From a virus (lineage: Duplodnaviria; Heunggongvirae; Uroviricota; Caudoviricetes), in IMG/VR virus record IMGVR_UViG_2693429549_000020, positions 1-9,017 of that record: DNA of 9,017 nt; one strand, given 5' to 3'. The notes under the pieces are model-generated. The model was not told where the DNA came from, ran no database searches, and was given only the letters and a program-made list of their open reading frames with translations. Shown here piece after piece: positions 1,970 through 2,392 of this stretch. Within the stretch, counting starts at the first letter, position 1, and each line of letters opens with the position of its first letter. The translations under genes were made by a program, and so were the position numbers.

Positions 1970-2158
1970 TCAGTCTGGTTCAGTTCGTTGCCATACCTGC
2001 AATGAGCGCGTTTCCCTGTACTCTTTAAGGAATTGCTCAAGGGCAAAAGCACATGGCGCGAATCTTTCTGATTCATGCTCTATCTTTCTGCGCCGTCTTT
2101 TCCGTGCCGGTGATAATGTTTTGGTCAATTCTTTATCGGTCATTGTGTTGTCCTGCAT
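1970..2158 (-). CDS. Hypothetical small basic protein (62 aa)
   Basis: Minus-strand ORF MQDNTMTDKELTKTLSPARKRRRRKIEHESERFAPCAFALEQFLKEYRETRSLQVWQRTEPD with protein-like composition, unlike the S/C/R-rich plus-strand ORF 1869..2501 over the same DNA. It is in the same frame as the upstream RHH ORF, separated by a single TAA (2201-2203) and 14 codons. No strong SD; an alternative start is the ATG at 2143. Confidence 0.4.
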   Translation of the reverse strand: MQDNTMTDKELTKTLSPARKRRRRKIEHESERFAPCAFALEQFLKEYRETRSLQVWQRTEPD

Positions 2159-2200
2159 AGCAATGCGCCGTAATACCTCACACCACGGCGCTGATAGTTT

Positions 2201-2392
2201 TTATCCTTTGGGTTCTATGCCGCGCCGCTTTAGTTCAGTGCGCCCCAACTCTTTAAGCCAGTTGGCTAGGCTTATGCCGTCGCTCTGTGCTTCTTTGTCG
2301 AATTGCTCTTTTAGCTCTGGAGAAATTCGCATTCTGAATTGTGGGGATTGCCCGTCCCCTTTAGGGCTTTTATCGCGTTTGATTGTTGACAA
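2201..2392 (-). CDS. Ribbon-helix-helix (CopG/Arc-like) DNA-binding protein, candidate repressor
   Basis: Minus-strand ORF containing RMRISPELKEQFDKEAQSDGISLANWLKELGRTEL, which matches the beta-strand / helix A / helix B layout of RHH domains. The longest form starts at TTG 2392 with an AGGTGA SD-like sequence 4 nt upstream; an alternative start is the ATG at 2332 (43 aa). Operator-like repeats lie directly upstream. Confidence 0.6.
   Translation of the reverse strand: MSTIKRDKSPKGDGQSPQFRMRISPELKEQFDKEAQSDGISLANWLKELGRTELKRRGIEPKG

Follow-up and report, generated by a model that had tools for sequence, protein, structure and literature searches.

The window analysed here, a stretch of 9,017 nucleotides (nt) at positions 1 to 9,017 of IMG/VR virus record IMGVR_UViG_2693429549_000020, is by its gene content a P4-like or capsid-forming phage-inducible chromosomal island (PICI) satellite of Escherichia coli. 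On its minus strand, a ribbon-helix-helix (RHH) regulator gene and a second, smaller open reading frame (ORF) lie in the same frame and are separated by a single TAA. An earlier note on this DNA had offered three explanations: two genes, one longer regulator broken by a nonsense mutation, or programmed stop-codon readthrough. Taking the evidence as a whole, we consider it probable that the pair consists of two separate genes, one for an Arc-like repressor and one for a protein of 57 amino acids (aa), lying antisense inside a plus-strand ORF that corresponds to an N-terminal extension of P4 eta/kil homologues in relatives, is kept free of stop codons and fixes the frame and spacing of the genes opposite.

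A conserved stop and a 57-nt gap between two same-frame genes

Minus-strand translation of 2440..1967 gave ...ELKRRGIEPKG*KLSAPWCEVLRRIAMQDNTMTDKEL...EPD*, confirming that the RHH ORF terminates with TAA at 2201-2203 and that 14 sense codons separate this stop from an in-frame ATG at 2158. In a single window such a layout is within chance (p=1/3 for a shared frame and p ~0.5 for 14 stop-free codons). IMG/VR, RefSeq and other assemblies together supplied ~260 homologous loci, representing 141 unique segments. In 135 of the 141, a stop codon (TAA in 115 loci, TAG in 16 and TGA in 4) was followed by a gap of exactly 57 nt and a conserved ATG; the six exceptions had either insertions of a multiple of three nt, which widen the gap to 186 or 105 nt, or an RHH pseudogene with a frameshift. 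It is the conservation of the in-frame 57-nt gap, not the layout in one window, that is non-random.

The ATG that defines this gap is not the one from which the earlier note had counted 62 aa. That codon, at 2158, differs in ~45% of the unique sequences. The ATG at 2143, which is M6 of the 62-aa ORF, is invariant across the family, as is the CAGG Shine-Dalgarno core ahead of it. Because the downstream start and its Shine-Dalgarno core are invariant and the upstream start is variable, we assign the small gene 57 aa (2143..1970, minus strand) and a true gap of 57 nt, or 19 codons; the ORF previously described therefore stands, with a different start.

The spacer (2144..2200, minus strand) is non-coding and constant in length in the same 135 loci. 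About a third of the unique loci (13 of 35 unique spacers) hold further in-frame stops in it, at five different positions, and its variability, counted by 'codon' position, falls in the order position 1 > position 2 > position 3, which is not codon-like. It contains a hairpin at 2165-2191 with a folding energy of -17.7 kcal/mol (z=-1.68, unremarkable), a conserved sequence and 92.6% of cells paired. In two loci (L173 and L196) a 129-nt insertion, again a multiple of three, follows the type-A RHH gene and creates a hybrid ORF of 41 aa whose C terminus is the YlcI-type tail EIKRRQRRKAKEQE; the usual 57-nt spacer comes after the insertion, and the opposite-strand frame is open throughout it.

Programmed readthrough at TAA 2201-2203, producing an RHH isoform that carries the spacer and the small ORF, would fit the identical frame and spacing in the 135 loci, as well as the lack of any further stop between 2200 and 2159 in the window. 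The pattern expected of readthrough, a downstream region evolving as coding sequence behind a conserved stop and stop context, was not found, however. The additional spacer stops and the non-codon-like variation, which peaks at position 1 and is least at position 3, argue against it, as does the use of all three stop codons, mostly TAA. Moreover, the conserved Shine-Dalgarno sequence and ATG belong to the small ORF itself, and the databases hold no protein in which the RHH domain and the small ORF are fused. We consider readthrough very unlikely and, in practical terms, rule out a conserved readthrough isoform. The idea of one longer regulator split by a nonsense mutation has the shared frame in its favor and nothing else. 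The alignment of homologous loci that the earlier note had suggested showed a stop at the TAA position in every locus and every RHH type, with no sense codon among the 141 unique loci, yet the identity of the stop codon varies. In many genera, RHH homologues have 63-64 aa and terminate in GIEPKG, none of the 54 RHH clusters from a search of 5.8 billion proteins extends past this tail, and the longer RHH entries in databases are N-terminal mis-starts. Since no locus has a sense codon at the stop and no RHH protein continues beyond GIEPKG, we regard the nonsense-mutation reading as refuted and give it virtually no credence. The two-gene option is thus upheld by the stop and 57-nt gap, by the small ORF's own Shine-Dalgarno sequence and ATG, and by the lack of a fused homologue.

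A stop-free frame opposite both genes

Antisense to both minus-strand genes lies a plus-strand ORF of 210 codons (1869..2501), whose ATG is 10 nt past the alpA stop and is preceded by AGGGGAG. The third codon positions of this ORF coincide with those of both minus-strand genes, so codon-position diversity alone cannot separate the strands; for this reason we relied on BLOSUM comparison, substitution classes and synonymous shuffles.

The plus-strand frame was stop-free in all 135 of 135 unique loci over the 3' part of the RHH gene, the spacer and the small ORF. Within stretches that are non-coding on the minus strand, it contained stops in none of the 35 spacers, in 6 of 61 segments upstream of the RHH gene and in 1 of 64 downstream segments, and the other frames had stops in most of these stretches, except for sense frame 1 in the spacer. 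Across 11 RHH types, the plus-strand frame had 0 stops vs. 10.1 expected from synonymous shuffles, compared to 41 and 39 stops in the other two antisense frames; the product of the per-type probabilities of an open frame is ~1e-5, for types that are not fully independent. Full plus-strand ORFs range from 209 to 576 codons and begin at most ~20 nt from the stop of the upstream gene in most loci.

The layout of this ORF is the same in Providencia, Proteus and Dickeya, and in Proteus it takes the form of an ATGA overlap with a Bro-N gene. In these three genera (loci L264-L268), a gene with an AntA, Bro-N or pRha domain is present on the alpA strand between alpA and the RHH gene, and the ORF antisense to the RHH gene begins by overlapping the stop of that gene; the E. 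coli window has no such gene. One stop-free ORF of this kind, 791 codons in locus L270 (1546-3921, minus strand), runs on the alpA strand across two tandem RHH/small-ORF modules (one of them degenerate), isrK and C4 before terminating in an Icd-like domain.

Within RHH types, the substitution rate was 0.162 for changes synonymous for RHH and nonsynonymous for the plus-strand frame, compared to 0.051 for the reverse class and a similar 0.042 for changes that are nonsynonymous in both. BLOSUM sums were likewise higher in the RHH frame (5230) than in the plus-strand frame (3813), and searches of the plus-strand ORF against Pfam and PADLOC gave no family match. Together these comparisons indicate selection for the encoded proteins on the minus strand and only for the lack of stops on the plus strand.

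The reverse arrangement, in which the plus-strand ORF is the sole true protein gene and the RHH gene and small ORF are shadow ORFs, might be suggested by the plus-strand frame always being open and by its annotation in several genomes by the Prokaryotic Genome Annotation Pipeline (PGAP). We rejected it as exceedingly unlikely, given the amino-acid-level selection on the minus-strand frame seen in both the substitution classes and the BLOSUM sums, the Arc fold and Arc sequence similarity of the RHH protein (described below), and the lack of a family match for the plus-strand ORF. The PGAP labels themselves are inconsistent: in three RefSeq E. coli loci (L001-L003), the plus-strand ORF bears the label hypothetical, 'Icd-like partial' or 'BRO-N partial', the RHH gene sometimes bears YlcI/YnfO or 'HicB family antitoxin', and the small ORF is unannotated.

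How might an open frame on one strand fix the spacing of genes on the other? For the opposite strand to stay open, both minus-strand genes may have to share the single phase in which this costs least, and only insertions or deletions of a multiple of three would be tolerated. The shared frame and 57-nt gap could thus be maintained because the plus-strand ORF is kept stop-free and because any other insertion or deletion would break it. Alternatively, frame and gap may have merely been inherited with a recombining DNA module, the plus-strand ORF imposing nothing. Such inheritance would fit the near-identity, in many loci, of the small ORF, the spacer and the 3' end of the RHH gene, as well as the recombination breakpoints near the RHH stop. 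Against it, the plus-strand frame is open in non-coding stretches where the others, with the one exception noted above, are not; stop depletion is seen in 11 divergent RHH types and in four genera; the insertions into the gap are 129 and 48 nt long, both multiples of three; and an unrelated ORF downstream of the RHH gene in Providencia is likewise in frame. Inheritance by itself is therefore an unlikely explanation, although one to which we leave some weight. The constraint from the plus-strand ORF is most likely the best explanation of the fixed frame and spacing, with inheritance of a shared module contributing.

An Arc-like repressor, its putative operators and the small gene

The first gene (2392..2201, minus strand) starts with TTG and encodes 63 aa. 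The earlier note had labelled it an RHH regulator, and its profile, predicted structure and structural matches all identify it as Arc-like. It matched the PHROGs Arc-like family phrog_228 (5e-7), and a profile of the family found P22 Arc as its best sequence match in the PDB (E=0.0035) over nearly the full length. The AlphaFold2 (AF2) model (pLDDT 82) has an extended segment followed by helices at residues 25-37 and 42-56, and the top Foldseek matches of this model were all Arc (probability 1.0, TM 0.77-0.89), followed by CopG, AmrZ, NikA and RHH antitoxins. The predicted protein thus has the beta-strand and two helices of the Arc/MetJ RHH superfamily together with similarity to solved RHH structures. 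Its frame is under purifying selection by both the BLOSUM and the substitution-class comparison.

Homologues of 63-64 aa, all starting at one shared position with ATG, GTG or TTG, were found in Providencia, Proteus, Morganella, Xenorhabdus, Dickeya, Erwinia, Edwardsiella, Serratia and other genera of the Enterobacterales, always placed between the satellite's alpA block and its replication block. The tail RGIEPKG (2201-2224, minus strand, in the window) of the Arc-like proteins is nearly invariant over many genera; the YlcI-like types all terminate in RRQRRKAKExE, and modules have their recombination breakpoints at this C-terminal tail or close to it. The gene upstream of the small ORF falls into at least 11 sequence types in E. 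coli, 3 of them Arc-like and 8 YlcI/YnfO-like. When the YlcI/YnfO-like group was compared to the Arc-like profile, the alignment spanned the entire beta-alpha-alpha unit (probability 79%, E=1.5e-5).

Each RHH type has its own word of 9-13 nt, present in 2-3 copies upstream of the gene. For type A, the type found in the window, this is GTGGTCACCT, with copies at 2393-2402 and 2428-2437. These lie within two longer repeats at 2386-2402 and 2421-2437, so the repeats previously reported across 2386-2437 are real. A rightward promoter-like site on the plus strand (-35 TTGACA at 2386-2391 and -10 TAGCCT at 2410-2415) overlaps the operator words and the RHH start codon. Sites of the form TTGAC(A/G)-17/18-TAnnnT were present in 10 of the 11 RHH types, and the mapped operator words lie in or beside this promoter, mostly with one copy in the spacer between -35 and -10 and another after the -10. 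The operator co-varies with the repressor type, a signature of immunity-type repressors, which suggests that each RHH protein binds its own word. Arc/MetJ proteins bind repeated operator half-sites as a dimer of dimers, a mode for which the 2-3 word copies per type are indirect evidence.

Two hairpins bracket the operon. The terminator that the earlier note had placed at its end was recovered in a terminator scan at 1876..1905 (minus strand), with an 8-bp GC stem at 1905..1886 followed by the T-run TTTGTTTT; since the plus strand has no U-run after the stem, termination is predicted leftward only. The other hairpin (2462..2498), with a 15-bp stem and a T-run, is terminator-like in the leftward direction on the minus strand and sits upstream of the operators, between them and the start of the Icd-like ORF. 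It is present in all RHH types with differing stem sequences, suggesting that its structure is conserved, and could be either a leftward terminator insulating the RHH promoter or the 5' hairpin of a rightward RNA.

The second gene (1970..2143, minus strand), with its invariant ATG and CAGG, matched phrog_21027 (E=3e-16), and no other match was found in Pfam, NCBIfam, PADLOC or PDB. AF2 predicted a disordered, Arg-rich N terminus (SPARKRRRRK) and a single helix at residues 24-53 that would be amphipathic (pLDDT 71 overall, 76-93 in the helix). The conserved core is ERFxPCxFALExFLKEY, with ERF/Y in divergent homologues. A word search yielded 36 clusters of this family, and a hidden Markov model (HMM) search of 1.84 billion proteins yielded nine representatives, one of which, a 1141-aa protein with 13 short stretches, was set aside as probably spurious. 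Where sources were named, all were Escherichia or Shigella satellites; a profile search of genome contigs with the small-ORF alignment found one locus, in Shigella, and a tblastn search of GenBank phages found no match, consistent with a satellite-borne family.

Could this second ORF be a conserved non-coding 3' region, antisense to the alpA-eta transcript and open by happenstance, leaving the RHH gene as the only gene? Purifying selection on it is weak, with a ratio of nonsynonymous to synonymous polymorphism (pN/pS) of 0.45 vs. 0.59 for the opposite frame, its substitution classes differ only slightly, its family is very narrow and absent from other genera, and RefSeq leaves it unannotated in the loci examined. 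However, its ATG and Shine-Dalgarno core are invariant, and it is open in 141 of 141 loci even though most of the non-coding segments that flank it have stops in this frame. Conservation is highest in the sense frame (BLOSUM 165 vs. 131 for the opposite frame), and nucleotide diversity in the core is.14/.08/.22 at codon positions 1, 2 and 3, the order expected of a coding frame (position 3 > position 1 > position 2). Even the most divergent homologue (P0094, ~47% identity by a rough count), which follows a type-C RHH gene, retains the core and the 57-nt gap, and the AF2 helix is confidently predicted. We therefore think it doubtful, though far from negligible, that the small ORF is non-coding.

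The earlier note had also raised the possibility of an RHH antitoxin with a basic partner. Some HicB proteins carry an RHH DNA-binding motif at the C terminus, and their N-terminal partial RNase-H-like domain binds HicA. The RHH-first gene order with autoregulation-like operators, the PGAP name 'HicB family antitoxin' given to homologues and a weak Pfam HicB match (20.4 bits vs. a cutoff of 21) could all point to a toxin-antitoxin module. The HicB match is limited to the shared RHH motif (profile positions 18-48), however, and at 63 aa the protein consists of the RHH unit and a basic N-terminal arm, lacking an RNase-H-like HicA-binding domain; the seven residues of tail beyond the fold are too short for a toxin-binding domain. 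No hicA is adjacent: the neighbors are the small helical ORF and alpA, without PADLOC matches, and the small ORF is a predicted single helix with no PADLOC, Pfam or PDB match. The partner is also not obligatory. It is absent beside the same RHH gene in Proteus and Dickeya, where the RHH gene has no same-strand neighbor, and in Providencia its place is taken by an unrelated ORF, which argues against a toxin-antitoxin pair; we judge such a pair improbable. The Providencia ORF (L264, 3196-3348, plus strand) encodes a hydrophobic 50-aa product (MKAILWILALVLASLFF...), begins 3 nt after the RHH stop in the same frame, and is also covered by a long opposite-strand ORF.

A proposed switch and its relation to known satellites and phages

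In the model that we propose, the RHH gene (2392..2201), encoding the repressor, and the small gene (2143..1970) would form a leftward two-gene operon ending at the terminator at 1905..1876, and translation would halt at TAA 2201-2203, with neither a readthrough product nor an ancestral fusion. In the resting state, RHH protein bound to both GTGGTCACCT copies would repress the rightward promoter and autoregulate its own, and any rightward transcription that escaped would be dealt with by the isrK/C4 RNA immunity, as described for P4. Upon induction, ribosomes translating the plus-strand ORF would shield transcripts from the alpA promoter from premature termination, by analogy with P4 eta, and RNA polymerase would be driven head-on through the repressor operon and on into the RNA-immunity region. 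The repressor operon may thus be nested antisense in a translated, alpA-coupled extension of the eta leader that is selected for lacking stops, with induction from the alpA promoter flipping the switch and the locked frame as its footprint; this is a tentative proposal, in which we place slightly less than even confidence. The suggestion in the earlier note that the pair is the master switch of the element is plausible, with type-specific operator repeats overlapping divergent promoters, although both the binding and the promoter activity are predictions. The RNA-immunity elements are likewise real, isrK and two C4 RNAs lying downstream on the plus strand.

Several points weigh against this interpretation. 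Continuity with eta was found in 106 of the 161 unique plus-strand ORFs and not in all, and in the window itself the plus-strand ORF stops at 2501 and overlaps the eta homologue (2474..3073) by 28 nt in a different frame. The promoters, the operator binding and the translation of either strand are all read from sequence, and eta-type anti-termination is carried over from P4 by analogy. The E. coli loci are linked by descent and recombination, and part of the 57-nt invariance could be inheritance. The evidence that the small ORF is coding is moderate on sequence grounds: sense-only-synonymous changes (0.39) exceed antisense-only-synonymous changes (0.30) by a small and possibly insignificant margin. 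No compensatory changes or covariation were found when the spacer hairpin was tested.

One of the closest known arrangements is vis-eta/kil-CI of P4. Eta prevents termination there and is coupled to the alpA homologue (PMC10111431, section 20, citing Forti et al. 1999), and that article makes no mention of opposite-strand RHH genes. P4 eta (8168..8812, 214 aa) shares 49 nt with the end of vis, spans isrK/seqA and C4/CI, and contains Phage_ASH and an Icd-like (Kil) domain. As in P4, an alpA/vis homologue is followed by a closely coupled long ORF, which in many relatives runs over seqA/isrK and CI/C4 to end in a Kil/Icd-like domain. The ATG at 1869 gives a long ORF starting at the end of alpA, as expected of a P4 eta-type leader. 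Translation of such a leader is expected to suppress premature, Rho-dependent termination of transcripts from the upstream promoter, and the plus-strand frame, open although its amino acids are unconstrained, offers indirect evidence of this. An ORF running across seqA and CI to an Icd-like end is supplied by 2474..3073 in the window and by the 106 continuous ORFs among the 161 of the relatives; the window ORF 1869..2501 stops short in a different frame. Unlike P4, where eta begins inside vis and where we saw no RHH-like ORF opposite eta, the eta genes of the relatives have an additional N-terminal extension of 210-270 codons with a repressor operon on the opposite strand, and in the window the extension does not share the frame of the eta homologue. 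Locus L269 shows the continuous form, a 419-aa ORF with an N-terminal extension of ~270 aa antisense to the RHH/small-ORF pair followed in frame by Phage_ASH and the Icd-like domain.

The repressor side recalls P22 immI, with its Arc and Mnt repressors, divergent promoters and antisense RNA control of ant. The small RHH protein described here is similar to Arc (27% identity by structural alignment), predicted operator repeats lie between divergent promoters, and the adjoining operon is controlled by antisense RNA. The differences are that this operon is of the P4/P1 type (isrK/seqA, C4/CI and Icd/Kil) and not ant/sar, that the RHH gene lies antisense within the plus-strand ORF, that it comes in at least 11 operator-specific types and that a small basic ORF follows it. 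The immI region of P1 and P7 (c4-icd-ant) likewise places a C4 RNA and an Icd-like cell-division-inhibitor domain ahead of downstream genes; the window lacks ant and has an additional, divergently transcribed protein repressor. With respect to YlcI/YnfO (DUF3950), this group accounts for 8 of the 11 types of upstream gene beside the small ORF in E. coli, and the window's own gene is of the Arc-like type; our literature search on YlcI, YnfO and DUF3950 returned nothing on function. The nesting is thus a variation on two known themes, the P4 eta/kil leader and Arc/Mnt-type repressors. We found no earlier description in the literature of a repressor nested antisense inside an extended eta-like ORF.

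The remaining features of the window are consistent with its assignment to a P4-like or capsid-forming PICI satellite, elements that combine int, alpA, primase and their own capsid genes within ~10-15 kb, all of which the window shows, the capsid part on a reading by eye. An integrase gene occupies 1-1239. The last gene ahead of the long plus-strand ORF is the vis homologue alpA (1649..1858, plus strand; Pfam Phage_AlpA, E=2.2e-16), annotated in relatives as a 69-aa form, and P4 Vis likewise matches Phage_AlpA. The window also carries a DUF4222 gene, an SSB gene and a primase gene (4040-5788). A 638-codon ORF (7101-9017, plus strand) runs past the end of the window and, read by eye, resembles a ClpP-like prohead protease fused to a major-capsid-like region, which would be typical of capsid-forming PICIs.

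The P4 eta/kil homologue with its Icd-like C-terminal domain (2474..3073, plus strand, probable start at ATG 2535) was identified by Phage_ASH (2e-12) and NF033153 (4e-16), and its composition is that of P4 eta. Rfam placed isrK/seqA at 2642-2718 and a first C4/CI RNA at 2743-2830, and a second C4/CI RNA lies at 3220-3308, all on the plus strand. The sole consensus promoter match in the region, TTGATC-18-TATGAT at 2606-2635, lies ahead of isrK/seqA. The ORFs 2474..3073 and 3024..3530 form two eta/kil-like units in tandem, of which only the first contains isrK/seqA. Because each unit has a C4/CI RNA and a terminal Icd-like domain, the immunity module (2474-3530) appears to be duplicated.

The related loci adjoin tRNA-Pro, cspD and similar genes and are IMG/VR contigs of 8-15 kb. 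The 1860-2480 segment was matched in 1321 of 5426 complete E. coli genomes, mostly across the small-ORF part, so that about one quarter of complete E. coli genomes bear the module. To our knowledge, accounts of how P4-like and capsid-forming PICI satellites are controlled have until now dealt with AlpA and the CI/C4 immunity RNA, and a literature search on capsid-forming PICI repressors returned nothing on function. Our results point to a protein repressor with many operator-specific types in these satellites as well. If the proposed nesting is true, it would be a clean natural case of selection for protein on one strand and for translatability alone on the other. It would also counsel caution in screens for recoding, since an in-frame stop between two ORFs can mimic recoding while being a by-product of constraint on the opposite strand.

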